Source: Burkholderiaceae bacterium
Lineage (GTDB): Bacteria > Pseudomonadota > Gammaproteobacteria > Burkholderiales > Burkholderiaceae_C
DNA length: 64,000 nucleotides
Assembly (NCBI GenBank): GCA_040382935.1
Contig: JBEIEP010000015.1
Coordinates: 213-64,212 of the forward strand
Reading direction: 5' to 3'
Shown here: piece by piece, positions 1 to 35,970 of the stretch
Layout: each line of letters opens with the position of its first letter
Position numbering within the stretch: the stretch's first letter is position 1
Program-made: the position numbers and the translations under genes
Notes under the pieces: model-generated
Told to the model about the DNA's origin: nothing
What the model saw: only the letters and a program-made list of their open reading frames with translations
The model's database searches: none

Positions 1-866
1 GGTGTCGTTGGTAGGCTAAGTTCGCTGCCATTCGAAACAACCGCTACTGTGCGAATGGCCTCTACGGTGCTGTCCATGCCGTTGATAACCCTCCCAAATG
101 CGGCATATCCACCGGTAACTTTATCTCTATCCGTATCTAGGAATGTATTGTTAACCACGTTGATAAAGAATTCATTTGTGGCACTGTTCAACACACTGGT
201 TCGTGCCATTGCAATAGTGCCCTTGACATTGCTAATACCTGTCTGCGCTGGTGCTTCTAAGGCGATGGCCGCGTAGGTGGATGATTTCCTTGTTAGAGCT
301 GTGGTGTAGGTGTATCCGCCCCCTTGAACCATGAAGTCCGATATAACTCTGTGAAAAACGGTGGATGCGTAAAAACCGTCATTCACATATTTCAGAAAGT
401 TAGCCGTTGTGATCGGCGCCTTGGTTGGCTCCAATTCAACGACAAACTGCCCCAAGCTTGTGCCCATACAAACCGTAGGCTTGGTGCTTGCGTCAGAGGC
501 CGTATAACCAGACGCATTGCAGGGGCCGCGAACAGAAGAGGGCGCACTCACGTTACCGGCCGTATCCTTTGCCCATACATAGTAAGTCGAGTTAGGGACC
601 ACCAACTGCACCGCTTTGGTATTTGAGGATTGAAAGCAGGCATCCGAATTGCTTGGCGTTGTGTTTGAATTCTTAAAGCAGTAGCCTGACACCTGAAAAT
701 TGTCTGTGGCAGTGGCAGTCAGCGTGATAGCGCCGGAAACCGGTGCTCCCGCAGAGACGCCTGATAGCGTAGGGGCAATCGAATCCGGAGTACCGCCGCC
801 GCCACCGCCACACCCTACAAGAATGCTCAAAACGCTAACGCTGCATGTCGTTAAAAAGTAATTCAT
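1..866 (-). CDS. Lipoprotein with Ig-like region and cyclophilin-type peptidyl-prolyl isomerase domain (3' end runs off the window)
   Basis: ATG at 866-864. Reverse translation gives MNYFLTTCSVSVLSILVGCGGGGGG (signal peptide plus lipobox LVGC), then TATATDNFQVSGY, then the cyclophilin signature APITTANFLKYVNDGFYASTVFHRVISDFMVQGGG. The frame stays open to position 1. It is absent from the ORF track because no stop lies inside the window. Confidence 0.75.
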   Translation of the reverse strand, partial: MNYFLTTCSVSVLSILVGCGGGGGGTPDSIAPTLSGVSAGAPVSGAITLTATATDNFQVSGYCFKNSNTTPSNSDACFQSSNTKAVQLVVPNSTYYVWAKDTAGNVSAPSSVRGPCNASGYTASDASTKPTVCMGTSLGQFVVELEPTKAPITTANFLKYVNDGFYASTVFHRVISDFMVQGGGYTYTTALTRKSSTYAAIALEAPAQTGISNVKGTIAMARTSVLNSATNEFFINVVNNTFLDTDRDKVTGGYAAFGRVINGMDSTVEAIRTVAVVSNGSELSLPTT

Positions 867-1098
867 TTAAACACCTAAGAGGTTGCTGGGCGCACACACA
901 AAGTGTGGTGGGAGCGTATTGTTACTTAGTTTTGTGTTGAGCGCTATGACAAGCTGATATTCGCGGTGTTGGCTTGATACCAGCACTGATCAGAATCGGT
1001 TGCATGGATCGGCTCTTAATTTGGCGAGTGCACTAATGGATGAACAAGCTATTGATTATATACAATGTATATTATGTTAAATACCAAATATTCTCAGG

Positions 1099-1503
1099 CT
1101 AGCGTTCTAACCAGTTCTCAACCCTAAGGCCACGGATACGGTCGAACTCTCGCCCGTTCTCAGTGACCAGTGTGAGGCCCAACGCACGGGCGTGCGCGGC
1201 GATCAACAGGTCGTTCATACCAATGGGTTGGCCCGCGGCTTCTAGCTCGGCGCGAATGCTGCCGTATTCAGCGTCAACCGGACTCTCTAGCGGCAGAACC
1301 GGAACCGTTCGCAAGATCTCCTCAACCTTAGCAAGCAACTTGGCTGAACCCTTTTTGGCACAGCCATAGCGAAGCTCAGACGCAACAATGATGCTGGTGA
1401 CGATACGGTTTGATCCAAGCTGCCCAATGTGACGTGCGGCCAGCCCGTCCGGGTTTCGAATTAGCTCGCTGATGATGTTGGTATCCAGCAGGTAGCCGTT
1501 CAA
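1099..1503 (-). CDS. vapC: PIN-domain toxin VapC
   Basis: N-terminus MNGYLLDTNIISELIR with acidic PIN residues. It overlaps the upstream antitoxin gene by 4 nt. Confidence 0.85.
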   Translation of the reverse strand: MNGYLLDTNIISELIRNPDGLAARHIGQLGSNRIVTSIIVASELRYGCAKKGSAKLLAKVEEILRTVPVLPLESPVDAEYGSIRAELEAAGQPIGMNDLLIAAHARALGLTLVTENGREFDRIRGLRVENWLER

Positions 1504-1766
1504 AACAGGTTCTCCGGCTGGGCTGGCATATCGTCAATGTCTGGGAACTGATCGCCCTGCCCAAACGGCGCGTCTAGCCGCCATTGGGTGAGTAATTCGA
1601 CGATGTTAGTGGGCCGGGTCACCGGCTCAATGATGAGCCTGCCCCCTTCACGGTGTATCAACACGCGCTCGCCCGGCAACTCGAACTCAACCGGAATCCG
1701 CACAGCTTGGCTGCGGTTGTTGCGAAACAGCTTGGCTTCTTTGGGTTTGGCTGGTGTGGACAGCAT
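1500..1766 (-). CDS. vapB: AbrB/SpoVT-type antitoxin VapB
   Basis: Contains LFRNNRSQAVRIPVEFELPGERVLIHREGGRLIIEPV (swapped-hairpin AbrB-like fold). I chose the ATG at 1766 (MLSTPAK), preceded by AGAGGA, over the GTG at 1784. Confidence 0.8.
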   Translation of the reverse strand: MLSTPAKPKEAKLFRNNRSQAVRIPVEFELPGERVLIHREGGRLIIEPVTRPTNIVELLTQWRLDAPFGQGDQFPDIDDMPAQPENLF

Positions 1767-1786
1767 AGGCACAGGTCCTCTCACTT

Positions 1787-1814
1787 ATGTATATGCCATA
1801 TTGTATATGCCATA
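1787..1814 (-). promoter_or_regulatory. Two tandem 14-bp direct repeats, candidate VapB operator
   Basis: atgtatatgccata followed by ttgtatatgccata, back to back, 21-48 nt upstream of the vapB ATG. Confidence 0.4.
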
Positions 1815-1851
1815 ACATCACCCTGGCAACCGGGTGGTTGACAACCCCATG

Positions 1852-2247
1852 TCACAAAAGGTGCGTAGATTGCCCCTGGGCCACTAAAAGTGTTAGAGCC
1901 TTCTTATCAAAGGACACAAAGGTTTCTCCGCCCAACCAATGGCCTTCATAGGCGATGACGCCGTCGGCAAAGTCTCCGCCTGCCTCTAGTACCCGCAAAC
2001 CCGCCTCAACAGCCGGTCGGTTCAATTCCACGTTAGAGGTGGCAATAAGCGCTCGAATCGCGCGTGCCGCGTCTGCCTGCTGCAAGCCGTACACGCGCAG
2101 CAACACCCAAACAAACTCGCAGAGACAGGGCGTTGCCACCGCAATGAGCTCAGCTTGGGTCAAGACGGCGACGGCGGCATTCGCTTGTACTGGATCGTCA
2201 CGTACCACCGCCCGCACCAGCACGTTGGTATCGACTGCGACCTTCAT
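1852..2247 (-). CDS. vapC: PIN-domain toxin (second VapC)
   Basis: Starts MKVAVDTNVLVRAVVRDD. The ATG overlaps the antitoxin stop in an ATGA arrangement. Confidence 0.8.
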   Translation of the reverse strand: MKVAVDTNVLVRAVVRDDPVQANAAVAVLTQAELIAVATPCLCEFVWVLLRVYGLQQADAARAIRALIATSNVELNRPAVEAGLRVLEAGGDFADGVIAYEGHWLGGETFVSFDKKALTLLVAQGQSTHLL

Positions 2248-2495
2248 TTCTTGCTTGCCCAACCCTGGGTGGCCGCCTCGTTCATTTCTTCAATGCTGGC
2301 GACCTTGTCTGTTTTACCCGCTAGCAGGCCGACAAAGCCGGTGATTGTTTCTGGCGGACGCGCCGCCTTGATAACACCTCTGCCATCGGGAAGCAAATCC
2401 AACTCGATCTTGTCGCCTGGCTTGATACCCAAGTGCTGCAAAACGTCTTTGCGAAAGGTGACTTGCCCTCTCTCAGTAAGCGTCAGTGTCGTCAT
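2244..2495 (-). CDS. vapB: AbrB/SpoVT-type antitoxin (second VapB)
   Basis: MTTLTLTERGQVTFRKDVLQHLGIKPGDKIELDLLPDGRGVI matches the SpoVT/AbrB motif. Confidence 0.8.
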   Translation of the reverse strand: MTTLTLTERGQVTFRKDVLQHLGIKPGDKIELDLLPDGRGVIKAARPPETITGFVGLLAGKTDKVASIEEMNEAATQGWASKK

Positions 2496-2604
2496 GTCGA
2501 TGCGCCTTTTAGGATGGCAGTTTGCAAAAACACATAGTAATGCAAAATCGCCTTATCGTCTATGGCGTCTATTCCAGCCGCAAACTGACGCGTAAAGCAA
2601 CAGG

Positions 2605-3534
2605 CTATCCCCAATACAACAAAACATCACGGCCCGAAACAGTCAGCTGGGTTTTAAGGCCAAATGGCAACACCACCTTGGTGGGTACGTGGCCAAAAGG
2701 CAGGCCTGTTAACACGGGTAGGCCGGTAAGCTGGGCCAGCCATTGCTCCACCGTGCGCAACTTAAAGCCTCTATCGGCAGGCGACAAGGTAAACGCGGTA
2801 AATTGCCCCAGCACAATGGCTTTTTGCGACGCTAGCACCCCGGCCAGATGCAACTGGTTCAGCATGCGCTCTATCTTGTAAGGCGGCTCGCCCACATCCT
2901 CTAACCACAAAATGCCGCCTTTAACCTTAGGAAAATAGGGCGTGCCCAGTAGGCTGACCAGCACGCACAGGTTGCCCCCCCACAGAACACCGCTACCCAA
3001 ATCTTCCTCTTGGTCAGCGGCCAGTTGATAGGGCGATGAGGCCGGTAAACGCCAACCCGCGCCCTCGCCCTGCCCCTGAACCAAATCGTCAAAGCAGGCC
3101 TCCATAATGTCATCTGGAAGCTGCGTATTTGGGTCTTGATGCCCAAAATCAGCGCCGACTGACGGCCCAGCCCAGGTGACGGTTTTGTTGACGGCGTAAC
3201 TTGCCGCTTGCAGGGCAGTAAAGTCGCTAAACCCCACAAACCGGGTGCCCTTGGCCACGGCTTGGTGGATCTTGTCGTAGGGCAATTGGGTCAGCAGCCG
3301 CGTTAGGCCGTAACCGCCGCGAGACACGATGGCAATATCGGCACCGCTAGAGGCAGCGCGGTCTATGGCACGTAGTCGCGTTTCATCGTTACCTGCAAAT
3401 CGCGTAAAACTGGCCGTTGCATCTGGGTCCACCGTGACCTCGTGCCCTAAGTGCTTCAGGCGGGCCAAGCCCCTAGCAAAGGCTTTTTTGTCGATGATGA
3501 GGCTGGACGGTGAATAAACGTAAATCGATGCCAT
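2605..3534 (-). CDS. ldcA: LD-carboxypeptidase (muramoyltetrapeptide carboxypeptidase, peptidase S66)
   Basis: Motifs SRGGYGLTRLL and FVGFSDFTAL (nucleophile Ser). The start MASIYVYSP at 3534 forms a TAATG overlap with the upstream stop. The longer 374-aa ORF N-terminus is Arg/Cys-rich and lies inside the upstream gene. Confidence 0.8.
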   Translation of the reverse strand: MASIYVYSPSSLIIDKKAFARGLARLKHLGHEVTVDPDATASFTRFAGNDETRLRAIDRAASSGADIAIVSRGGYGLTRLLTQLPYDKIHQAVAKGTRFVGFSDFTALQAASYAVNKTVTWAGPSVGADFGHQDPNTQLPDDIMEACFDDLVQGQGEGAGWRLPASSPYQLAADQEEDLGSGVLWGGNLCVLVSLLGTPYFPKVKGGILWLEDVGEPPYKIERMLNQLHLAGVLASQKAIVLGQFTAFTLSPADRGFKLRTVEQWLAQLTGLPVLTGLPFGHVPTKVVLPFGLKTQLTVSGRDVLLYWG

Positions 3535-4919
3535 TACTGAAAAATCTCCAATGCACATTCTGCGATTTCTTTGCCGTGCTCTTGTACAAAGTGGCCTGCC
3601 TGCGGGATTTGCAGCGCAGGCCCACAACCCCGGATAGCGGGCCGCATGGCCTGCATCACGTCCCAGCCTAACACAGGGTCTTGCATTCCTACGGCCATTA
3701 AACTGGCACCGCTCCATTGCTCTGACCAAAAAGTCTTGGCCTGCCGCACCAGCGCAGCACCCGGTGCGTCTGGTTGGTCGGGCACCATGTTGGGGAAACG
3801 CCGCGTGCCTGCTCTCAACCCACTGTTCACAAAAGGCGCGTTATAGGCCTGGCACTCGGCTGGGCTTAGGTGGGGGTTGCCTCTGGCAAACAGCCGTGCA
3901 ATGTCAAACACCGGGTTTTTGCCGCACATGGTGCGCCAGTCTAAAAAGCCCTGGCTTAAAGGCTCAAGACCCGTAGGCATAGCGGTGTTCATCACCAAAA
4001 GCCCTTTGTAGCGATGCGGTGCCGCCATGGGCAGGGTCAATCCCAAAATGCCGCCCCAGTCTTGTACCACCAACACCACGTTGCGCAGGTCCAACCACTC
4101 CACCAGTTCCAGCAGGTTGTTTCTGTGCCACTCAAACTGATGGAAGTCGTCGGCCTTGGGTTTGTCGCTTTTGCCAAACCCTATCAAATCGGGGGCCACC
4201 ACGCGGTGCCCACCCGCCAAAAACACCGGGATCATTTTGCGGTACAGGTAGCTCCAAGCGGGGTTGCCGTGCAAACACAGGTAGGTGGTGGCCGTGTGCG
4301 CACTGCCCTGCCCTTGGTATTCATCCAGGTAGTGCTGGCGCAAACCCGACAGGCTGGGCAGATCGGCCACGTAGTGGGGTGCCCAAGGGTAGTTGGGGCA
4401 CTGGGCAAAGGCCTCGTCAGGCGTTCTTAGGGCGTCGTCGCGCAGCGGAAAGTTCATTTTGGCCTGTGCCAGATTTTCATGGCGGCGTTGTTTAAAAAAT
4501 GCGGACAACAAATCGGCAGATTGAGCTGCCGCTTGCGTACCCGCATACGAAGTAACTTGCGTATGGTGGTTGATTTGGCGCTGGGCAAACACATCGATCA
4601 CCGACCCTGCTGCCCCGGCTTTGGCGTCTGCTGCCGCAAAATGCACCTTGGCCAATCTCGCATTGGCGATGGCCCCGGCGCACATGGCGCAAGGCTCCAA
4701 GGTCACATACAGCTCACAGCCCTCTAATCGGTAGTTGCCCAGTGTGGCCGCGGCTTGGCGCAGCGCGACGATTTCGGCATGGGCGCTGGGGTCATGGTCT
4801 TGCACACAGCGGTTGCTCCCCTCCCCCACAATGCGCCCATCTTTAACCACCACCGCACCCACAGGCACCTCACCCCGCTCAAAGGCCGATTGGGCCAGGG
4901 CCAGTGCACGGTCAAACAT
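3534..4919 (-). CDS. tadA: tRNA adenosine(34) deaminase TadA fused to an alpha/beta-hydrolase (haloalkane-dehalogenase-like) domain
   Basis: The N-terminal part has HAEIVALR...TLEPCAMCAGAI (CDA zinc motifs). The C-terminal roughly 290 aa has LCLHGNPAWSYLYRKMIP, APDLIGFGKSDKP and VVQDWGG (nucleophile elbow). Confidence 0.8.
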   Translation of the reverse strand: MFDRALALAQSAFERGEVPVGAVVVKDGRIVGEGSNRCVQDHDPSAHAEIVALRQAAATLGNYRLEGCELYVTLEPCAMCAGAIANARLAKVHFAAADAKAGAAGSVIDVFAQRQINHHTQVTSYAGTQAAAQSADLLSAFFKQRRHENLAQAKMNFPLRDDALRTPDEAFAQCPNYPWAPHYVADLPSLSGLRQHYLDEYQGQGSAHTATTYLCLHGNPAWSYLYRKMIPVFLAGGHRVVAPDLIGFGKSDKPKADDFHQFEWHRNNLLELVEWLDLRNVVLVVQDWGGILGLTLPMAAPHRYKGLLVMNTAMPTGLEPLSQGFLDWRTMCGKNPVFDIARLFARGNPHLSPAECQAYNAPFVNSGLRAGTRRFPNMVPDQPDAPGAALVRQAKTFWSEQWSGASLMAVGMQDPVLGWDVMQAMRPAIRGCGPALQIPQAGHFVQEHGKEIAECALEIFQ

Positions 4920-5571
4920 TGCCCTCTATCCAATCGGCCAATTGGCGCTCGCCATGCGTGCCTGCCCGGTACTGCGCCAAGGTGGTGGCGCGAGCCTCTG
5001 GCCGGTGCTGGTTGATTTTGACTTTAAGTTGCCAACTCGTCACCGTTAGCCGGTAACCCGTAATGGCACTTAGCATTTTGCCGGTGTAGTCCTCTGGCAG
5101 ATCGCGCCACTGCTGGGCGTAGTGCGGTTCGTGGTCACCAATCAAGCGCTTGAGCAATTGGTCTTTTTGATGGGCATCGGTAATCACTTCTACATCGGCC
5201 CGGCAATGCAGGGCCACGTAATTCCAAGTGGGCACCCGTTGCAAATCGGGGTACACCGAGGGCGACAGGTAGGCATTGGGGCCTAACACAGTCACCACCA
5301 CACGCGGCCGCGCCAGCAAATGGCGCACCTGGGGGTTGCCATTGGCCAGGTGGCACAACAAAACAAAGGTCTGTTCATCTTGCCCCGATTGGCTTGCATC
5401 ACCCGGCGGCACCGCTCTGCCTTGTGCTACGTCTTGCCAGTGCAACGGCACGTGGCTGATATAGGGCAATCCCTCGTCATCGGTGCTAATCACGCTGCCA
5501 AGGGGGTATTCGCGCACCAGCCGTTGGGCTACCGACAGGTCACGGGATGCAAAGTGTTTGGGAAGGTACAT
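4912..5571 (-). CDS. FMN-binding negative transcriptional regulator, PaiB family
   Basis: The N-terminus MYLPKHFASRDLSVAQRLVREYPLGSVIS is typical of the PaiB family. Confidence 0.7.
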   Translation of the reverse strand: MYLPKHFASRDLSVAQRLVREYPLGSVISTDDEGLPYISHVPLHWQDVAQGRAVPPGDASQSGQDEQTFVLLCHLANGNPQVRHLLARPRVVVTVLGPNAYLSPSVYPDLQRVPTWNYVALHCRADVEVITDAHQKDQLLKRLIGDHEPHYAQQWRDLPEDYTGKMLSAITGYRLTVTSWQLKVKINQHRPEARATTLAQYRAGTHGERQLADWIEGNV

Positions 5572-26394: not shown

Positions 26395-26510
26395 GGATTT
26401 TCCTCAATAGGCGAGCATCTGAGCAGAACACTGATCGATTGTGCAACTCCGTTGACGCCCCCAGCTTCGCCGTCAACAACGTCCCATTTGCGACTAAATG
26501 CCTCTTCCCG

Positions 26511-26528
26511 TTACTCCCACTCAATTGT
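26511..26528 (-). repeat. Third, short copy of the guaA 3' terminus (att-like core)
   Basis: ttactcccactcaattgt matches tcactcccactcaatcgt at 32799-32816 at 16 of 18 positions, in the same orientation. Its reverse complement encodes TIEWE* like GuaA. It sits at the left edge of the low-GC block. Confidence 0.5.
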
Positions 26529-26974
26529 CAACCCGCAAGAAAAGTTGAATTTCATCACACCGTGTCGCACTTGGTTGGACAGTGGCTACTGATTGTGCAA
26601 GGTCGTCCATACCGTCAGCTTTACCGTCGGGAAAAACCAGACTAAATTTTGGCCGTTCGTCGCCTGCAAGCGAAATGCTGTTTTCAACCACCAATGGGTT
26701 TAATGGAAAGAAAATTATGCCAGCATCTCACGCACGCATCAATCAAATCCCTACCCTGCAAAGCAGAAGACTACGATATCGACCTCCATAAAAAAAAGCG
26801 AGACGATGCAGCAAAAAGTGTGGCACGATCTGTCGAAACTTCACTGATTTTCGAACGCCTGAATCACCTGTTCTTCCTGATCATCTCAAGGAGTTAGCAT
26901 GCATTGAACACATGTTTGCTTCCTGAGCCCCAAATGAATTACTCAAGTACGTAGCGAGCAATCAAGCCGCAGCC

Positions 26975-28516
26975 TTAAAGCTTAGTAAGCCCCGCAATTA
27001 TTGCTGTGACGCATTTTTGTTGCTGAATGGGCGACAAATTCGCGCGCAAAAGACGGTAATGGAACACTGCTAAAGCATAATAGTAATTTTGGAAAGATTC
27101 ATTGGGAAAATTTGCCTTTGCCAAGCCCCTTATTGTTTGAATAATTTCAAAAGATTCAGATTTTGCATGTGCGACTGATTGTCCTGCTTGGATTTCATCC
27201 TCCAAGTAGTGCAGCCAATTAGAAGGTTCTGTCGACTTTCCAAAAAGTCGAATGCTTGACTCCATTGTTACAAAGTCCTCAAACACATGTCCACGCCCAG
27301 TCTCTTGAAAATCTATAAATATGACGTCCTCCAATTTCGAGACGATGACGTTGTTGGAGTTAAGATCACCATGGCATATGCAGGAAAGATAGCGATCCAT
27401 CGGCGTACCAAATAACCGCGCGTGCGGTTCGACTACAACGATACCTGCGACGGCCAGTCTTTTTCCCTGCACAATAGCCCGAAATGTATCTGAGGCCACG
27501 CGATTAAAAACTAAAGCACTCGTGGCTTTCGCCTCAGCTCCACTAAAGTACCGCTTTGAATAATGCTCAACTATATTTGTGGATGATTCTATTAACTCCT
27601 CGCCGTACCATCGGCGCATATTAGGACTAAAAATTCTCTCGATTACTTTTCTAACAACATCAAAACTTCCCGTTTCAAGAAAATAAGTAAGAGAATTGAA
27701 ATCAACACCGGAGTCACCCTGAATAAACGAATATGCAACAGCACCGAGACTTTTTGTTTCTCCGCTTCCAAGTAAATCAACCCGCCACTTATACGGCAGC
27801 CCCCATTTTACGAATTTGTTGTAATTATTGAGTTCTGACGCAGCCCACTCTCGTTCTGATACTTTGAGCACTGCTGGAACAGATTCGAGTTTGCTTTTGC
27901 TGTTAAATGTGTTGAACTTATAAACCTTGCTCCCACTGAATCCGCCCGCAAGTTTACTTATGCGGACAGTATCAGGGGTGATCTGCGTATCAGAGTCATG
28001 TCCGGTGAACGTGATCTGAGCAAGAAGTGAATTAAATTCTCTAAGCTGACCTTTTGATTTAAAGTCATCGTGGTAAGCGGTCCCGGATTCTTCTATTTTG
28101 AGAATAGTATTGATCCGAAAACGAGAAGCGAATTGCTGGGCGCAAATCTCGATGTACGGTTTGTTTTTACCAATCAGTTCTCCTTTATCAAAAAACATAT
28201 CGAAAAATGCTTTTTTAGCAAAGACATTTCTCGGTGAATATTCTGAACCTGACGCAAGAATGCGAAAGATGTCTGGATACTCCGTGCGGAGGGTTTTTAG
28301 GATTAACAGTCCATCCGCTACTTGCCCAAGGGACATATCGCATATGACAACATGTGGCCAATTTTTATCTATCTCTTTACGAGCCTCGCCTTCTGATGTT
28401 GTCAAGGCAAAAGTTGCGTTGTATCCAGCCAAGTTAAAAATCTCTTGGTAGCTACTTTCCAATTTTCTCGCTAAATCGATGCTTGACTCGACTATTAAAA
28501 CTTTAACTGGTTTCAT
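26975..28516 (-). CDS. Receiver (REC) domain fused to a protein-kinase-like/APH-type phosphotransferase domain
   Basis: REC features: KVLIVESS, phospho-acceptor D60 in VVICDMS, ILASGS and FDKG. Kinase-like features: G-loop GGFSGSKVY, AVLKV, catalytic HGDLNSNN and IDFQETG. GGAG precedes the ATG. Confidence 0.75.
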   Translation of the reverse strand: MKPVKVLIVESSIDLARKLESSYQEIFNLAGYNATFALTTSEGEARKEIDKNWPHVVICDMSLGQVADGLLILKTLRTEYPDIFRILASGSEYSPRNVFAKKAFFDMFFDKGELIGKNKPYIEICAQQFASRFRINTILKIEESGTAYHDDFKSKGQLREFNSLLAQITFTGHDSDTQITPDTVRISKLAGGFSGSKVYKFNTFNSKSKLESVPAVLKVSEREWAASELNNYNKFVKWGLPYKWRVDLLGSGETKSLGAVAYSFIQGDSGVDFNSLTYFLETGSFDVVRKVIERIFSPNMRRWYGEELIESSTNIVEHYSKRYFSGAEAKATSALVFNRVASDTFRAIVQGKRLAVAGIVVVEPHARLFGTPMDRYLSCICHGDLNSNNVIVSKLEDVIFIDFQETGRGHVFEDFVTMESSIRLFGKSTEPSNWLHYLEDEIQAGQSVAHAKSESFEIIQTIRGLAKANFPNESFQNYYYALAVFHYRLLRANLSPIQQQKCVTAIIAGLTKL

Positions 28517-28541
28517 TCTTCGGCTCCAAATTTTTACAGCG

Positions 28542-30944
28542 TCATGCAGGATAGGGGATTTTTATCAAGCACTCGGTATTGTTTCTAGTAGCTTCTCTTG
28601 TGAGAAAAACCTGTCCACCAAGCGTTTTTGTAATCATTCCGATGAGTAACATGCCGTAGCGAGCTCCCCTGTCATTTGAAATTATCGGAGCAACACACAT
28701 GCGATCAAGAATTCCTTGATCTCGAATTGCACCGTGCTTGGACGTTATGCGTACGATTGACCTATCACCAATCCCGAATATTGGTCGGTCATCAATAGTG
28801 ATCGAATGGGCATCAGATTGCTCGATACTTCCGTGTGACACTGTGTTCTGAATTAAATTTTTAACAATAAACTGAAAGCCAAACCAGTAGCTGTTTGGGA
28901 AACGCTCTTTGGATAATGATTTAACTTGAACAAGATTAATAATCTTTCTCCGATTTTCTTCGGAAAGAGCAGCATACGCCAAAGAAACCCACTCACTCAG
29001 CCAATCGCCAAAAGGTAAACCGTGACCGTGACCGTGATCCTGGTCTCTAAGCCGAAACAACTTCGATAAAAGCTGTTGCTGATTTGAGGAAAAAATGGAG
29101 TTCTCCACAGACAGGTGTTGATCCAACTCGTGAACGGCGGCATGAGTGCTGATCTGTTTGGCAAGGCTACGGATGTCGCTATAGCCAAGAGTGTGCGAGT
29201 AAGCTTCCTCAATGTTGTCTCTAACTGCCTTTAAATAGCTTTCCATTCCGTCAAAAGCACGGGGCATTGGGGCCTCTAAGTTTATTGTCCCGACAGGTAC
29301 TTTTCCAAACCTGAGCGGAAGACAAGCTTCAGACCGAGTGTTGTGCCTTGCATTAATCGTAGAATTTAGACCCTTCTTGCGTAGCTCAATTGGAATGTAG
29401 GATGCATTTGGACGAGTCGAGTCGATAAACGGAATATTTATGAAATCTAAGCCATCGATTGCATGGGCGAAAGCAAAAGCGTTTACGCTTGTACGAAATT
29501 GACTTGCACGAATCTCAAAATTTTCGCTTGAACTTGAATATTTACCCTCAGAGTCCCTAGCCTTTGCAACCAATCTAAGCTCTCGCGAGTCTTGCTCATA
29601 CAACCTAACCGTCATGCTGTGAGCCATGGTTGCAGCAATTGTTTGATGAGACATCCATTCTGAAAAGTCTACAAAATCAGATAGAAGTTGCGGGTAAGTA
29701 ACCTCGCTAAAGGTCTTTTGTTTTGATTTTAGAGCCTGGAGACGTTGACGTGCAAATACCAATGATTCGAGGCGTTTAGAAATAGTTTTTTGCCTAACAA
29801 ACTCATCCAGTATGACCTCGACAGAATATATGTCGTTTCTTTGAAATGGTTGATCGGAAAGAACGATAACGAGAAATCTCGGTCGTGTCGGCTTTGCGGC
29901 TGCAAACAATTCTGGAGTGGTTAGCGGAAATACCATGCCTTGTTGGCTACTTTGCTTGGCACTAGGTTCGAAATACTGTGGTTTTGCAAAATGCACTGCA
30001 TCAACAAGTGCCGCCCAGGTTGGCGTAGTCTTCCCACGTAGCGTGACCGGACGTCCGCGATGATTCAACGAACCATGCAATTCGCTTGGGATAACGATTG
30101 AAGTTTCACCAAATTTCGCTTCCTCAAACCCTTTATTACTATCAAATGCATGCGTTTGATCTGCCTGTTTTTGAAAAGCCAACCAGCTAGCAACTTTGGC
30201 AATAGAATCGTCATTGCGACTTGTTGACATGAGGATAATATGATCTGGTTGGACATGCACCACCACGCTTTCAAGTCTAGTATGCGACTCAATTTGATCT
30301 GCGACAGCTACAAGCCAATCTTGACTCTTATCCGTTAGCTCGATTCGGACTTTATCTCTCAGTTCAGAATGGTCATCACGATCAATGCTCAGTTTAATGA
30401 CTGAGTTTTCGTAAAAAAGATCGACCATCAGTCCAAGTTGTTGCAGTGTTTGTCTAACAAAATTCACGTCGCCGAAAATTTTGTAGTGCTCCGATTCCAG
30501 TATTTTTTTTGTAGCCCAATCATGTCCTAGAATACGTATAGCCTCCGCTTCGAGTGCGCTACCTGAGTCAAATGTTAAAGCGGGTGAACCTAGTCTGATC
30601 GAAAAACTGAGAGCGGTACTTTTCCTATTTCTAGATTTCGTATGCTGCATAAAAAGTAACGATCCAGATAGTATTTCGTTAAATACAACCGAGAATTCGT
30701 CGATGTCAGCAAGCGTTAAGAGCACGCCGCGAGAGATTTTTCTCAGCAGTGCAGAGTTAATTTTCCGAAACAAACTCGACAGTCGCTTTTGATTACCAGG
30801 GTACGCTTGCCTGTTCCGATTCCGTAAGTTTTCTTCAGGTGTTGCTATACCTAGGTTGGCCGGAGTGGAAGACCTTGCCTCATACGAGTTTGTAGTCGTT
30901 AGAGGCATCGAGCCAGTATCAGGGGAGGTTTTGATCATTCCCAT
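28542..30944 (-). CDS. Cytoplasmic sensor: unknown N-terminal region, GAF-like domain, HisKA_3-like helix and GHKL ATPase
   Basis: I saw no TM segment. The GAF-like stretch ends CLPLRFGKVPVGTINLEAP. The H-box candidate is HAAVHELDQHL, the N-box VKNLIQNTVSHG and the G-box DRGARYGMLLIGMITKTLGGQV. The start lies 5 nt after the upstream stop. Confidence 0.7.
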   Translation of the reverse strand: MGMIKTSPDTGSMPLTTTNSYEARSSTPANLGIATPEENLRNRNRQAYPGNQKRLSSLFRKINSALLRKISRGVLLTLADIDEFSVVFNEILSGSLLFMQHTKSRNRKSTALSFSIRLGSPALTFDSGSALEAEAIRILGHDWATKKILESEHYKIFGDVNFVRQTLQQLGLMVDLFYENSVIKLSIDRDDHSELRDKVRIELTDKSQDWLVAVADQIESHTRLESVVVHVQPDHIILMSTSRNDDSIAKVASWLAFQKQADQTHAFDSNKGFEEAKFGETSIVIPSELHGSLNHRGRPVTLRGKTTPTWAALVDAVHFAKPQYFEPSAKQSSQQGMVFPLTTPELFAAAKPTRPRFLVIVLSDQPFQRNDIYSVEVILDEFVRQKTISKRLESLVFARQRLQALKSKQKTFSEVTYPQLLSDFVDFSEWMSHQTIAATMAHSMTVRLYEQDSRELRLVAKARDSEGKYSSSSENFEIRASQFRTSVNAFAFAHAIDGLDFINIPFIDSTRPNASYIPIELRKKGLNSTINARHNTRSEACLPLRFGKVPVGTINLEAPMPRAFDGMESYLKAVRDNIEEAYSHTLGYSDIRSLAKQISTHAAVHELDQHLSVENSIFSSNQQQLLSKLFRLRDQDHGHGHGLPFGDWLSEWVSLAYAALSEENRRKIINLVQVKSLSKERFPNSYWFGFQFIVKNLIQNTVSHGSIEQSDAHSITIDDRPIFGIGDRSIVRITSKHGAIRDQGILDRMCVAPIISNDRGARYGMLLIGMITKTLGGQVFLTREATRNNTECLIKIPYPA

Positions 30945-30949
30945 ACTAT

Positions 30950-31276
30950 TTATAGTGCTACTCTAAGTTCGTGCGACAACTCAGGGTGTTTAATGATGAG
31001 CTTCAGTAAACAGACCACTCCACCGGGCGGAACAAATCTCCCCTGCTCCCAATCGCGCAACGTCGCTACCGGGGTAGCTATCCGTTCCGCGAATGCGGCT
31101 TGCGTCAGACCCGCTTTCTCACGCGCCTGTCGCACCAAAATTTGCTCGGGTATGGTGACTCGGCCAAGCCCGGTTTGCGCTTCAGCGAGTGCTTGCCGCA
31201 GATCAGGCAACGTCTCCCCAACGTCAGCTTCAAACGCCGCGGCCACCTTTTCAATGTCGATCTTTTTGATGCCCAT
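30950..31276 (-). CDS. HTH protein of the COG2944/HigA-2 antitoxin family
   Basis: Contains ILVRQAREKAGLTQAAFAERIATPVATLRDWEQGRFVPPGGVVCLLKLIIKHPEL. I chose the ATG at 31276 (MGIKKID). The longer 173-aa ORF is a read-through of the decayed toxin. Confidence 0.75.
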   Translation of the reverse strand: MGIKKIDIEKVAAAFEADVGETLPDLRQALAEAQTGLGRVTIPEQILVRQAREKAGLTQAAFAERIATPVATLRDWEQGRFVPPGGVVCLLKLIIKHPELSHELRVAL

Positions 31277-31277
31277 G

Positions 31278-31575
31278 TCACACCACCTTTTCGATTCCGG
31301 CTGGAAGCGTGTTGGCACTGTCGGCCTTGGCGAAGGCCGACACCAGCAACACCACTCCTGCTCGATCAAGTTGAAGTAGATCACCCGCGTACCACCTGAT
31401 TTGCCCGACCCGCCGCGGCCCCATCGAACATTGCCCGCTCCGTCCGCGCCGGGGACAACATCCCCAGCCAACGGGTTAGCAGCTTTTCAATCGATGAACC
31501 CAGCCGCTCGGTTTCAGTCCATAGCTTCTCTACTTGCCTCTGGATGGTGAACGTCTCAGTTTCTGTACGAATGCT
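31278..31575 (-). pseudogene. Decayed RelE/HigB-2-like toxin gene (two frameshifts plus an in-frame TGA)
   Basis: Homology is spread over three frames: IRTETETFTIQRQVEKLWTETERLG, then FID*KAANPLAGDVVPGADGAGNVRWGRGGSGKSGGTRVIYFNLIEQE, then GVVLLVSAFAKADSANTLPAGIEKVV*. No start codon sits at the expected N-terminus. Confidence 0.6.
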
Positions 31576-31751
31576 CTGATTGTACGGGATTTCCGTACTT
31601 ACGCAACATCCAACTGATGGCATAGCCCGTCCCATGTTTATGCCACTAGTCACACGAGACAGGGCTAAAAAAGGGAACGTTCGTATCGTAAAGCGACGGT
31701 GCAGCTTGATTTATTTACATCCAGTGCGATTCAGGACGACCCACTCGTACA

Positions 31752-31924
31752 TCACTCCCACTCAATCGTAGCCGGCGGCTTACTACTCACGTCATAAGTC
31801 ACCCGGATAATGCCTTTCACCTCGTTAATGATGCGGCTGGACACTTTTTTGAGCAAGGCGTAGGGTAGTTCTGCCCAGTCTGCGGTCATAAAGTCGGTGG
31901 TTTGTACGGCTCTTAGGGCCACCA
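31752..31924 (-). repeat. 173-bp direct copy of the guaA 3' end (att-type duplication)
   Basis: It aligns base by base with 32799-32971, stop codon included, with 5 mismatches (31807, 31827, 31842, 31856, 31908). Confidence 0.9.
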
Positions 31925-31974
31925 TCCACGATGTGACCCGTCGTTATGATGCGCGCGCTATCCATCGTCTTCCT

Positions 31975-32394
31975 TCAAGCAAAGTAAAAAGCTACCCGGT
32001 CAGTTGTCCAAGTAGCCACACCAGTGCCAAAGAAATCCGTGTCTTCAGTCCAGACGGGACAACCTAATGTCATCGCGCACGCCAGTACAGGCCAATCGTC
32101 CGCGTCACGAACCGCGATGCGTTGCAAGGCCTGCTGTTGCATGCCTTCATAGAGTTCGGCATCAATGGATTGCACAACACCCTCAAGCCTATCCAGCACC
32201 AGCATTGCTGCACTGGAATCAACGTCGCGCTTTTTCAGCAACTCGGGCAGGTACTTTCGTGCGTCTGCATACGCAACATCAGGGGCAAAGAACTTGACCG
32301 TCCCAGCGTTGTCACAAATCAGTTCACGCACTCGCTTTCCCAATACCGCACGAATCAGAATGTTCGCATCAAGAACGATGGTCTTGCCACTCAT
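31975..32394 (-). CDS. vapC: PIN-domain toxin VapC
   Basis: Starts MSGKTIVLDANILIRAVLG and has WTEDTDF near the C-terminus. It overlaps the antitoxin gene by 4 nt. Confidence 0.85.
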   Translation of the reverse strand: MSGKTIVLDANILIRAVLGKRVRELICDNAGTVKFFAPDVAYADARKYLPELLKKRDVDSSAAMLVLDRLEGVVQSIDAELYEGMQQQALQRIAVRDADDWPVLACAMTLGCPVWTEDTDFFGTGVATWTTDRVAFYFA

Positions 32395-32678
32395 GCCGCT
32401 TTGACTTTCAGTTTTTTAGCGGGTGTGCTGGCTTTCCTGCGTGCTGCTTTGAAGTCTGCAACCACGGACTCAACATCCACCCCCTGTGCCTCAAGCAACT
32501 TGTCCAAGGTCTTGCTGGCTTTTTTCAAGGCTGCGATGTCTGCTTCAACTTCTCCCTGCGTGGGGATGAAGTAGCCAACTGTTTGGCCATGCCGAGTTAC
32601 AGCCACCGGCGTGTTGGAAGCGATGTACTCTGCTAGGTCGGAGCGAAATTCGCGTATGCCTACCTTTGTCGTTTCCAT
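32391..32678 (-). CDS. Phd/YefM-family antitoxin
   Basis: Starts METTKVGIREFRSDLAEYIASNTPVAVTRHGQTVGYFIP. The start was chosen at 32678. Confidence 0.8.
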   Translation of the reverse strand: METTKVGIREFRSDLAEYIASNTPVAVTRHGQTVGYFIPTQGEVEADIAALKKASKTLDKLLEAQGVDVESVVADFKAARRKASTPAKKLKVKAA

Positions 32679-32798
32679 GTGGATGCCCCTTTGGTTGTGA
32701 ATCTGTGTGTACACATTTTACGCGGTAATCCCCCCGACCATTCGTACCGCGATCGCCGCTCATTGCGCACGGCTCTAACGAACATCAGTCCTTGAACC

Positions 32799-34409
32799 TC
32801 ACTCCCACTCAATCGTAGCCGGCGGCTTACTACTCACGTCATAAGTCACCCGGTTAATGCCTTTCACCTCGTTGATGATGCGGCTGGATACTTTTTTGAG
32901 CAGGGCGTAGGGTAGTTCTGCCCAGTCTGCGGTCATAAAGTCGGTGGTTTGTACCGCTCTTAGGGCCACCACGTAGTCGTAGGTGCGGCCGTCGCCCATC
33001 ACGCCTACGCTTTTAACGGGTAGGAACACGGCAAAGGCTTGGCTGGTCAGGTCGTACCAGGATTTCCCAGTGGCGGGGTCTTGGTGGTTGCGTAGTTCTT
33101 GAATAAAGATGGCGTCGGCGCGGCGTAGCAGGTCGGCGTATTCTGGTTTGACTTCGCCCAGTATGCGTACGCCAAGGCCTGGGCCTGGGAAGGGGTGTCG
33201 GTACACCATGCTGGCGGGTAATCCCAGGGCAATGCCCAGTTCGCGCACTTCGTCTTTGAACAGGTCGCGCAGGGGTTCTAGCAATTGAAGGCCTAGCTGC
33301 TCAGGCAGGCCGCCCACGTTGTGGTGGCTTTTGATGGTGACGGCTTTTTTGTTTTTGGCCCCGCCGGACTCGATCACGTCAGGGTAGATGGTGCCTTGCG
33401 CCAGCCATGCCACATGGCGTGATTGTTGGTTTTTAAGGGCGGTGGCCTCTGCCTTAAACACCTCTACAAACTCGCGGCCAATGATTTTGCGTTTGGCCTC
33501 GGGGTCGGTTACGCCCGCCAGATGGCCTAAGAACTGCCCGGCCGCATCCACCCGAATTACCTTGGCGTGCAGTTGGCCCACAAACATGTCCATCACGGCA
33601 TCGCCTTCGTTGAGGCGTAGCAGGCCGTGGTCCACAAACACGCAAGTGAGTTGGTCGCCAATGGCGCGGTGAATCAAAGCCGCTGCCACCGATGAATCCA
33701 CCCCGCCGGACAGGCCTAAGATGACTTCTTCGTTGCCCACTTGGGCGCGTATTTTGGCCACCGCCTCGGCGATGTAGTCGCCCATAATCCAGTCGGCCTG
33801 GGTTTGGCAAATGTCTAAAACAAAGCGCCGCAGCAAGGCATTGCCCTGGCGGGTGTGGGTGACCTCGGGGTGAAACTGCACGGCGTAAAAATGCCGCGCT
33901 TCGTCGGCCATACCTGCAATGGGGCAGGCGTCGTTAGAGGCCATGAGCTTAAAGCCGGGGGGCAAGGCGGTGACTTTGTCGCCGTGGCTCATCCACACGT
34001 CCAACAGGCCGTGGCCCTCTGGGGTGGTTTCGTCGGCTATGCCGCTTAGCAAGGCGGTGTGGCCACGGGCGCGCACACGGGCTGCACCAAACTCACGGGT
34101 CGTGCCCGCCTCTACCGTGCCGCCCAGTTGCTGGGCCATGGTTTGCATGCCGTAGCAAATGCCCAACACCGGTACGCCCAATGTAAACACCGCCTCTGGG
34201 GCTTTGTCGGTTTCGGCCTCGTAGGCGCTGGCATGGCTGCCCGATAGCACCACGCCTTTGAGTTGGCCATCGGCGGCAAAGGCTTTGACCCATTCGTCGG
34301 ACACGTCGCAGGGGTGTACTTCGCAGTACACGTGGGCCTCGCGGATGCGGCGGGCGATGAGTTGGGTGACCTGAGAGCCAAAGTCAAGAATCAGAATTTT
34401 TTGGTGCAT
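32799..34409 (-). CDS. guaA: GMP synthase (glutamine-hydrolysing)
   Basis: Starts [24 protein letters not shown]. Also has [15 protein letters not shown] and the C-terminal KPPATIEWE. The 668-aa ORF extension overlaps guaB and is rejected. Confidence 0.95.
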
Positions 34410-34419
34410 GGTAAAAGTT

Positions 34420-35970
<1,551 letters not shown>

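Follow-up and report, generated by a model that had tools for sequence, protein, structure and literature searches.

The locus described here raises the question of what two adjoining genes of low GC content are doing at the end of guaA in a Burkholderiaceae bacterium. The genes lie within a 64,000-nt stretch of contig JBEIEP010000015.1 (assembly GCA_040382935.1), the whole of which was analysed and is referred to below as the window. Gene 1 is predicted to encode a cytoplasmic sensor resembling histidine kinases (HKs), and gene 2 a receiver domain fused to a kinase of the aminoglycoside phosphotransferase (APH) type (Table 1). We hold with moderate confidence that the two genes make up a self-contained phosphorelay module that spreads horizontally and serves in biological conflict, its target most likely being phages or other invaders. 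It is probably an undescribed two-component conflict system, similar to Detocs but differing in that both its sensor and its kinase effector are new, because the two families are always found together, usually among phage-defence and mobile-element genes.

An earlier interpretation of this DNA, made from its letters alone (the sequence-only reading), had placed two low-GC genes on the minus strand, 25 nt apart and with GGAG before the second ATG, and this layout was recovered exactly. All motifs that it quoted are present at the residues it gave, and H605 and N700 of gene 1 and D60, K218, D384, and D402 of gene 2 were confirmed codon by codon. The GC content is 43.0% across positions 26975–30944, compared with 55.0% in the window as a whole; per 500 nt it is 41–46% between 26.5 and 31.0 kb and 51–61% in both flanks. 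No transmembrane segment is found in either protein, in agreement with what had been said of gene 1, for which the maximum 19-residue Kyte-Doolittle mean is 1.33. Promoter and terminator scans of the islet that carries the genes gave no signal beyond shuffled expectation. The gene pair is a foreign, low-GC insertion at the end of guaA.

That the two genes form a unit follows from their relatives. We fetched 29 loci through gene 2 and ran hidden Markov models of both families on their open reading frames (ORFs). A member of the gene 1 family lies directly upstream of the gene 2 member in all 22 loci with upstream DNA, with an intergenic gap of -4 nt in eight, of -58 to -1 nt in six more, and of at most 44 nt in the remainder. 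The same arrangement is seen in eight further loci (seven of them independent) reached from gene 2 homologs on long contigs. When relatives of gene 1 were taken as the starting point, four out of four, including the weakest match (E = 8e-4), had a TCAD9/APH protein of 513–543 aa directly downstream. The adjacency thus extends to about 30 independent loci, every testable one, approached from both partners, and the expectation of the sequence-only reading that homologs co-occur as neighbours was confirmed as immediate adjacency wherever a locus included enough DNA. The two families are obligate neighbours with translational coupling.

No third conserved gene emerged from an all-against-all comparison of about 400 neighbouring ORFs, which rules out a buffer receiver, a helix-turn-helix (HTH) gene and an integrase in that role. 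In every locus compared the sensor has diverged further from the window copy than the effector, with identities of 41.5% versus 68.6% in L001, and of 27.7% (across half the length of the sensor) versus 46% in L002. The family is rare and patchily distributed, its named hosts being Sphingomonas, Roseomonas, Cohaesibacter, Phaeobacter, and Magnetococcales, and a scan of a genome collection with the single gene 2 protein as query returned one locus. The plasmid collection contained no near-identical DNA, and viral contigs yielded no relative of gene 2, the latter being neutral with respect to the function proposed here.

Tight coupling of two genes with no third partner is also what an addiction module would look like, and toxin-antitoxin (TA) genes surround the pair both here and elsewhere. 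The pair could on this account be TA-like, with a HipA-like kinase toxin restrained by the sensor and serving mainly to stabilise the mobile islet. We consider this very improbable, as an 'antitoxin' of 800 aa and five domains with conserved phospho-sites, and a receiver on the toxin, are far beyond known TA pairs. Gene order and sizes moreover fall outside type II TA conventions, and a DNA-binding domain for autoregulation is absent.

Gene 2 had been described as a receiver joined to an APH- or protein-kinase-like fold, the output of which would be a kinase-like enzyme rather than a DNA-binding domain. Both statements are upheld by the Pfam matches, which exceed their cut-offs for TCAD9 (PF19974; 76 bits, cut-off 40), APH (33.6 bits, cut-off 23.2), and Response_reg (31.1 bits, cut-off 30.2), and by the residues and structural matches given below. 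A word-indexed homolog search yielded 81 relatives, nearly all of 510–570 aa with the same domain labels; the precomputed TCAD9 label is present on all of them except the window's own entry. In an alignment of 33 sequences, used for all residue conservation in this protein, the phospho-acceptor candidate D60 of the receiver is invariant, S or T is conserved at position 89, and K111 is found in at least 90%. The first residue of the acidic pair after receiver beta1, E10, is kept as E or D.

In the AlphaFold (AF2) model of gene 2 (pLDDT 90), the receiver has the canonical (beta-alpha)5 form, places D60 where beta3 ends, and leads into a bilobal kinase with a helical C-lobe. The family profile matches the receivers of HupR1, NtrC, RcsB, and CheY (3.5e-5 to 1e-3) as well as APH(2'')-Ia (1.3e-6), and the top Foldseek matches are APH(3')-Ia (2e-7), followed by 5-methylthioribose (MTR) kinase and maltokinase. 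Invariant residues of the kinase include G191, S194, and S196 of the Gly-rich loop, K218, E228, H382-G383-D384, N389, and D402. Past the equivalent of the DFG motif lies a distinctive conserved segment, FQETGRGHVFEDF, with G407, H410, D414, F415, E419, and R423. Gene 2 is accordingly predicted to be a receiver plus an APH-type kinase with an intact catalytic core. An identity as an antibiotic-resistance aminoglycoside phosphotransferase was considered and rejected, as the best NCBIfam model, APH_3p, scores 18.9 bits against a cut-off of 205; an ordinary resistance kinase, one of the outcomes that would have undone the sequence-only reading, is not what was found.

Gene 1 as a single sequence has no significant match in Pfam, NCBIfam, PADLOC, or PDB sequences. 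A word-indexed search retrieved one relative only, and the same search with a 61-sequence profile returned the query alone. The family came to light when 1.84 billion cluster representatives were scanned exhaustively with HMMER, which gave 134 relatives (73 with E<=1e-10). Their length is mostly 650–770 aa, and the majority align only from about aa 305–435 to the C-terminus. Conservation was read from an alignment of 61 sequences, the members of which were also scanned singly against Pfam.

The AF2 model of gene 1 (pLDDT 85, pTM 0.83) starts with a disordered tail (aa 1–45), followed by two alpha/beta domains (at about 50–180 and 205–365), a long helix (369–407), and a GAF domain (415–585). 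The DHp helices (591–613 and 620–637), with H605 mid-helix in the first, and an alpha/beta CA domain (645–797) complete the chain. Its best Foldseek matches are full-length bacteriophytochrome HKs and tandem-GAF proteins. All-pairs identity within the family is 13–14% in the N-terminal domains, 29% in the GAF domain, and 22–23% in DHp and CA. Judging from the model and the family profile, gene 1 is a soluble, GAF-containing, HK-like protein.

The GAF block noted earlier stands at the level of the family profile, which matches the GAF structures 3ksg (7e-7), 4mmn (7e-4), and 8dgd (1e-3), and of the structure model. GAF_2 (PF13185) is matched by 14 of the 61 members, but the window protein by itself remains below the Pfam threshold (13.6 bits, cut-off 28.6). 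R533, S538, E539, G552, N555, and E557 are nearly invariant. In sequence, the conserved domain (aa 528–575, approximately positions 29220–29363) resembles the free-methionine-R-sulfoxide-reductase/YebR type (3ksg, 1vhm, 1f5m). The catalytic Cys of that type is missing at the aligned position ('ARH' versus 'ACD'), which suggests a conserved small-ligand pocket without reductase activity.

For the kinase-like half, the sequence-only reading had named an H-box of the HisKA_3 type, an N-box, and a G-box. The H-box itself is sound, H605 being invariant in the 61 relatives, but its HisKA_3 assignment is not supported: members of the family have 'HEL' as their consensus, and the solved structures related to them are of the SrrB, RetS, and QseC types. 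The N-box holds as well. N700 lies in a 'KNLIQN..H' motif that aligns to the N-box of SrrB and RetS and is, with P340, H605, G764, and G777, invariant across the family. As for the G-box, a degenerate G2/G3 region is present but the G1 DxGxG box is missing; the family segment 'lrIrykssg' aligns opposite SrrB 'ILYIKDTGTG'. HATPase_c (PF02518) is matched by 8 of the 61 members, and a profile of the C-terminal region matches the DHp-CA structures of SrrB (6paj, 0.0075) and RetS (6dk8, 0.014). Gene 1 therefore keeps the phospho-His and the Mg-ATP Asn without the canonical adenine-binding Asp.

The surroundings of the pair in other genomes point in the direction of conflict. Mobile-element, TA, or defence genes occur in roughly 10–11 of 13 contexts, which is a qualitative count and not a statistical enrichment (loci in Table 1), and PADLOC matches among the pooled neighbours comprise AbiEi/Eii, a CBASS-type cyclase, LmuA/B, a ThsA-like protein, and mad2/3. 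Such variable neighbourhoods, rich in mobile-element and defence genes, agree with the earlier placement of the genes in mobile rather than housekeeping DNA. At L005, a metagenomic locus, positions 1–5155 directly upstream of the pair hold genes for an SMC-like ATPase, a small protein, and SIR2 (Lamassu-like), followed by IS66, RelE/HTH genes, and an integrase; the region is a compact integrative defence island. NUDIX-domain proteins are encoded next to the pair in two unrelated loci, L011 (93–1106, 337 aa) and L033 (11715–12851, 378 aa). One locus has the NUDIX gene on the upstream side of the pair, the other on the downstream side, and the two proteins do not cluster as homologs. Their presence could be a coincidence or reflect an occasional accessory gene.

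From these elements a working mechanism can be proposed. The two hypervariable N-terminal domains of gene 1 and its conserved GAF domain would read a cytoplasmic cue, and the signal would run through the DHp helix pair with H605, beside the GHKL-type CA domain. The receiver of gene 2 would take the phosphoryl group on D60, which would switch the fused APH/TCAD9-type kinase on (or off). The kinase would phosphorylate a small molecule or another non-canonical substrate, and growth arrest or inactivation of an invader molecule would be the outcome. We infer the phosphotransfer and its direction, the cue, the substrate, and the defence phenotype. Of the earlier proposal of a candidate signalling or defence system, the structural claims, the pairing, and the mobile context stand, and the defence function is circumstantial.

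Several observations weigh against the proposal of a conflict phosphorelay. The first concern the relay. In the column of the G1 Asp (SrrB 'KDTGTG') the gene 1 family has Y, S, V, R, or similar, and no conserved Asp. The G2 box is cut down to 'rYGmflvG…R.lGG', with G764, G769, and G777 kept and the first glycines gone. RetS, which is not known to have autokinase activity, is among the closest solved sequence relatives of the DHp-CA region. With the G1 Asp gone from the CA domain and little left of the G2 box, and with RetS a close relative, autophosphorylation of gene 1 may fail, and ATP binding is not assured. On the side of gene 2, the second position of the acidic pair after receiver beta1 varies between S, D, P, E, and N.

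These features could instead belong to a RetS-like pseudo-kinase sensor that is unable to bind ATP. Such a sensor would regulate the receiver-kinase through direct contact, through phosphatase or phosphoryl-sink activity at H605, or by taking up phosphoryl groups from another source. The APH/TCAD9 domain would then be the only ATP-using enzyme of the pair, and its role could still be one of conflict. The substituted G1 Asp column (Y, S, V, or similar), the reduction of GxGxG to 'rYGmflvG', the position of the RetS DHp-CA among the top solved sequence relatives (E = 0.014), and the mere 8 of 61 members that reach HATPase_c would all fit such a sensor. Yet N700 and nearby N-box residues are invariant or conserved, and likewise G764, G769, R773, and G777 around the ATP lid, a pattern that is hard to explain if nucleotide binding has been lost; in addition, the best match is SrrB, a true kinase, and H605 is invariant. 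We therefore judge a pseudo-kinase sensor to be quite unlikely.

The remaining points concern function rather than chemistry. In structure, the kinase comes closest to antibiotic and metabolite kinases, which would equally fit a non-immune role, and neither family has a member with a known phenotype. PADLOC returned zero families for either protein at E up to 1, in a release whose Detocs models were not confirmed, and there is consequently no homology link to a validated system. About two of the 13 contexts, L024 and L038, look mostly housekeeping, and the association with defence genes is a count made without a background model.

The pair could instead be a non-immune accessory two-component system. 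Its GAF sensor would detect a xenobiotic, antibiotic, or metabolite and switch on a kinase for that or a related compound, giving inducible detoxification, resistance, or salvage on mobile DNA. The best structural matches of the kinase (APH(3'), APH(4), APH(2''), APH(9), amicoumacin kinase, MTR kinase, and maltokinase) are in keeping with this, as are the best-conserved domain of the sensor, which is a GAF of the type that binds small ligands, and some metabolic contexts (L024, L038, and the upstream side of L037). However, gene 2 falls far short of the cut-offs of the NCBIfam resistance APH models (18.9 versus 205), a fixed small-molecule ligand would be an odd match for N-terminal sensor domains that are hypervariable, and phage-defence and TA genes, rather than genes for resistance or catabolism, predominate among the neighbours. 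The kinase also belongs to TCAD9, a family tied to conflict systems (PMC10910872). On balance we regard a non-immune role as unlikely.

Returning to the conflict phosphorelay, a bolder form of it can be put forward tentatively. The pair may be an undescribed two-component immune family, in which a fast-evolving soluble multi-GAF sensor would detect infection and a His-Asp relay would unleash an APH/TCAD9-type kinase effector, phosphorylating a nucleotide, a cofactor, or an invader-derived molecule. In a more radical version, which starts from the degenerate ATP site of the sensor, the kinase domain of the effector itself may supply or control the phosphoryl group; the relay would then be non-canonical.

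How does the pair relate to systems already described? Detocs consists of the sensor kinase DtcA, the buffer receiver DtcB, and the receiver-PNP effector DtcC, and established that an HK-to-receiver-effector design can be a bona fide defence system (Rousset et al., 2023; bioRxiv 10.1101/2023.01.24.525353). Shared with Detocs are a cytoplasmic HK or HK-like sensor gene adjoining a gene for a receiver fused to an enzymatic, non-DNA-binding effector, a defence-island setting, and the proposed His-to-Asp phosphotransfer that would switch on the effector. In contrast to Detocs, the pair has no standalone buffer receiver, its sensor carries GAF-type domains instead of TPR, its effector is an APH/TCAD9 kinase instead of a PNP ATP nucleosidase, and the ATP-binding boxes of gene 1 are degenerate. 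In Detocs the receiver is fused to a cell-killing effector (PNP in 80%); gene 2 combines a receiver with an enzyme, here an APH-type kinase. Membership of Detocs was therefore rejected, given the missing buffer receiver, the other sensor and effector types, and the lack of a PADLOC match. The sequence-only reading had anticipated just this, a Detocs-like logic with a different effector and no separate buffer receiver, and it had assigned the pair to no named system; no third conserved gene exists, the effector is an APH-type kinase, and no PADLOC model matches either protein.

TCAD9, the 'Ternary Complex-Associated Domain 9', is associated with vWA-MoxR-VMAP conflict systems (PMC10910872) and belongs to the protein-kinase clan (bioRxiv 10.64898/2026.09.18.752743). 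The effector domains that the Aravind group listed for vWA-MoxR-VMAP systems include an APH-like small-molecule kinase that is active (PMC7159879, PMC8195603), and we infer that this kinase is TCAD9, a name not used in those papers. The output domain of gene 2 shares with this family its profile (76 bits against a cut-off of 40) and an intact catalytic core; unlike TCAD9 in the ternary systems, it shares its protein with a receiver and has an HK-like sensor as its partner. The source work reports no histidine kinases alongside vWA-MoxR-VMAP effectors (PMC7159879), and neither the 13 neighbourhoods annotated with Pfam nor the surroundings of the window pair contain vWA, MoxR AAA+, or VMAP genes.

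The best global fold matches of gene 1, the bacteriophytochrome HKs (PAS-GAF-PHY-DHp-CA; PDB 9eut, 8upk), are likewise soluble, with three tandem alpha/beta sensor domains and long helices leading to DHp-CA, but identity is only 9–10% and the TM-score about 0.18. Gene 1 differs from them in its hypervariable N-terminal domains and its degenerate G1 and G2 boxes, and bilin binding is unsupported. Similarly, gene 2 has the fold and the HGDxxxxN/IDF catalytic motifs in common with APH(3')-Ia, APH(2'')-Ia, MTR kinase, and maltokinase at 11–15% identity, far below the NCBIfam resistance cut-offs. Unlike these phosphotransferases, it carries an N-terminal receiver and the unique invariant segment past the DFG equivalent. 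With RetS of Pseudomonas aeruginosa (PDB 6dk7/6dk8), gene 1 shares sequence kinship in DHp-CA and atypical ATP-binding regions. RetS, however, is a hybrid kinase of the membrane whose target is a second kinase, GacS (PMC12189002); gene 1 encodes a soluble protein and has a receiver protein of its own as partner.

In the literature on TCAD9, receiver-APH fusions, and HK-based defence, no description of the pair was found. New here is the combination of a receiver-fused TCAD9/APH kinase with a GAF-type HK-like sensor; the TCAD9 family and the Detocs-type design were known already. The additions to the sequence-only reading are the membership of the effector in TCAD9 (PF19974), the two extra hypervariable N-terminal sensor domains, and the degenerate G1 and G2 boxes.

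The immediate surroundings in the window show how the pair is embedded. The last codons of guaA, ACGATTGAGTGGGAGT (…ATT GAG TGG GAG), are present three times, at 32801–32816, 31754–31769, and 26513–26528, where 0.01 matches are expected by chance. The integration scars suspected around the pair are thereby substantiated, and the guaA-end repeats define two tandem islets. No integrase or tRNA was found in either of them, and no other RNA elements were detected in the islet of the pair. A direct repeat of 38 nt with 71% identity (26437–26474 and 26591–26628) lies on both sides of the distal guaA core and may be a remnant of recombination-site arms, or chance. The mechanical ORF of guaA (32799–34805, minus strand) is 668 aa long owing to an upstream TTG start, the real GMP synthase being about 525 aa. 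Since guaB (34420–35889) adjoins guaA, the islets are located at the 3' end of the guaBA operon.

The TA genes that had been reported beside the pair are indeed there, as a PIN/Phd-type pair in one islet and RelE-like and MqsA/HigA-like genes in the other. The 1-kb islet (31770–32800, minus strand) contains solely the PIN_2 toxin and Phd-like antitoxin genes, between the true guaA 3' end and its 110-nt, 95% identical duplicate; its make-up suggests a minimal TA cassette that was inserted at the att site also used by the islet of the pair, the two islets standing in tandem. The MqsA/HigA-like HTH gene ends 5 nt before the ATG of gene 1, as read from the junction sequence, and has a host-like GC content, unlike the low-GC pair. 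It is not kept with the pair at other loci in the neighbour comparison, and its identity to the HTH protein near the pair in L005 is 29% across only 58 aa. Upstream of it, a RelE-type (PF06296-like) toxin gene (31270–31660, minus strand) is split over three frames, its fragments reading, in order, '…FTIQRQVEKLW…', '…GKSGGTRVIYFNLIEQE', and 'GVVLLVSAFAKAD…'. This is either a pseudogene that has left an orphan antitoxin or an assembly error. In the mechanical list, the tail of the broken RelE-type gene and the 108-aa HTH gene are artefactually joined into one ORF of 173 aa.

Table 1. Features of the gene pair and its islets (positions in the window; residues in the encoded protein), and neighbours of the pair at other loci.
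Feature	Residues (aa)	Position	Strand	Description	Basis
Gene 1		28542–30944	minus	800 aa, predicted cytoplasmic multi-domain HK-like sensor	ORF
Two N-terminal alpha/beta sensor-like domains	gene 1, 46–365	29850–30809	minus	Hypervariable in family	AF2 secondary structure
Conserved GAF domain (…RSEACLPLRFGKVPVGTINLEAP…)	gene 1, 415–585	29190–29702	minus		Family profile vs PDB GAF proteins
Predicted DHp helices with H605	gene 1, 586–640	29025–29189	minus	H605 codon 29130–29132	
GHKL/CA-like domain	gene 1, 641–800	28545–29024	minus	N700 codon 28845–28847; G1 Asp absent, G2 box reduced	
Ribosome-binding site GGAG		28524–28527	minus	7 nt ahead of gene 2 ATG, within 25-nt spacer	Sequence read
Gene 2		26975–28516	minus	513 aa, predicted receiver + TCAD9/APH-type kinase	ORF
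Predicted receiver domain	gene 2, 1–132	28121–28516	minus	(beta-alpha)5; D60 (codon 28337–28339), S89, K111	
Predicted APH-fold kinase	gene 2, 183–513	26978–27970	minus	Gly-rich loop GGFSGS, K218, E228, H382-G-D384-x4-N389, D402 (IDF)	
Distal copy of guaA 3'-end core ACAATTGAGTGGGAGT		26513–26528	minus	Far islet boundary	3 matches vs 0.01 expected
Second copy of last 110 nt of guaA		31744–31853	minus	Core 31754–31769; near boundary of the pair's islet	95% identical to 32791–32900
Islet 1		31770–32800		PIN/Phd-type TA pair	
Islet 2 (~5.2 kb)		26529–31753		Frameshifted RelE-like gene, MqsA/HigA-like HTH gene, gene 1 and gene 2	
MqsA/HigA-like HTH antitoxin gene		30950–31276	minus	108 aa	Pfam MqsA_antitoxin 2.5e-8, HTH_31; 108-aa gene call in duplicate contig
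PIN_2 toxin and Phd-like antitoxin genes		31975–32394 and 32391–32714	minus		PIN_2 at 2.7e-40
Neighbours at L005				Lamassu-like SMC+SIR2, IS66, RelE/HTH, integrase	
Neighbours at L007				Nuclease genes	
Neighbours at L008				Integrase	
Neighbours at L031				DNA methylase, transposase, Schlafen-like gene, PIN/Phd	
Neighbours at L033				Integrase	
Neighbours at L034				SIR2-STAND, zeta-like toxin	
Neighbours at L035				IS3, caspase, patatin	
Neighbours at L036				PglZ, SNF2, PIN	
Neighbours at L037				IS110; upstream side metabolic	

The pair is a credible candidate system that can be tested. Two-component phosphorelays have recently been shown, in Detocs, to act directly as anti-phage systems, and if the reading of the pair as a conflict phosphorelay is true, a second, unrelated family with another sensor class and a kinase effector would mean that this design has been recruited repeatedly. 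A 'regulated small-molecule kinase', not yet demonstrated for phage defence, would join the immune effector chemistries, and the substrate of the uncharacterised TCAD9 kinase family could be sought in a tractable setting of two genes. How HK-like proteins of this kind obtain their phosphoryl group is a mechanistic question posed by the missing G1 box, and the combination of hypervariable N-terminal domains with a conserved GAF domain makes the family a good model for invader recognition by soluble bacterial sensors.

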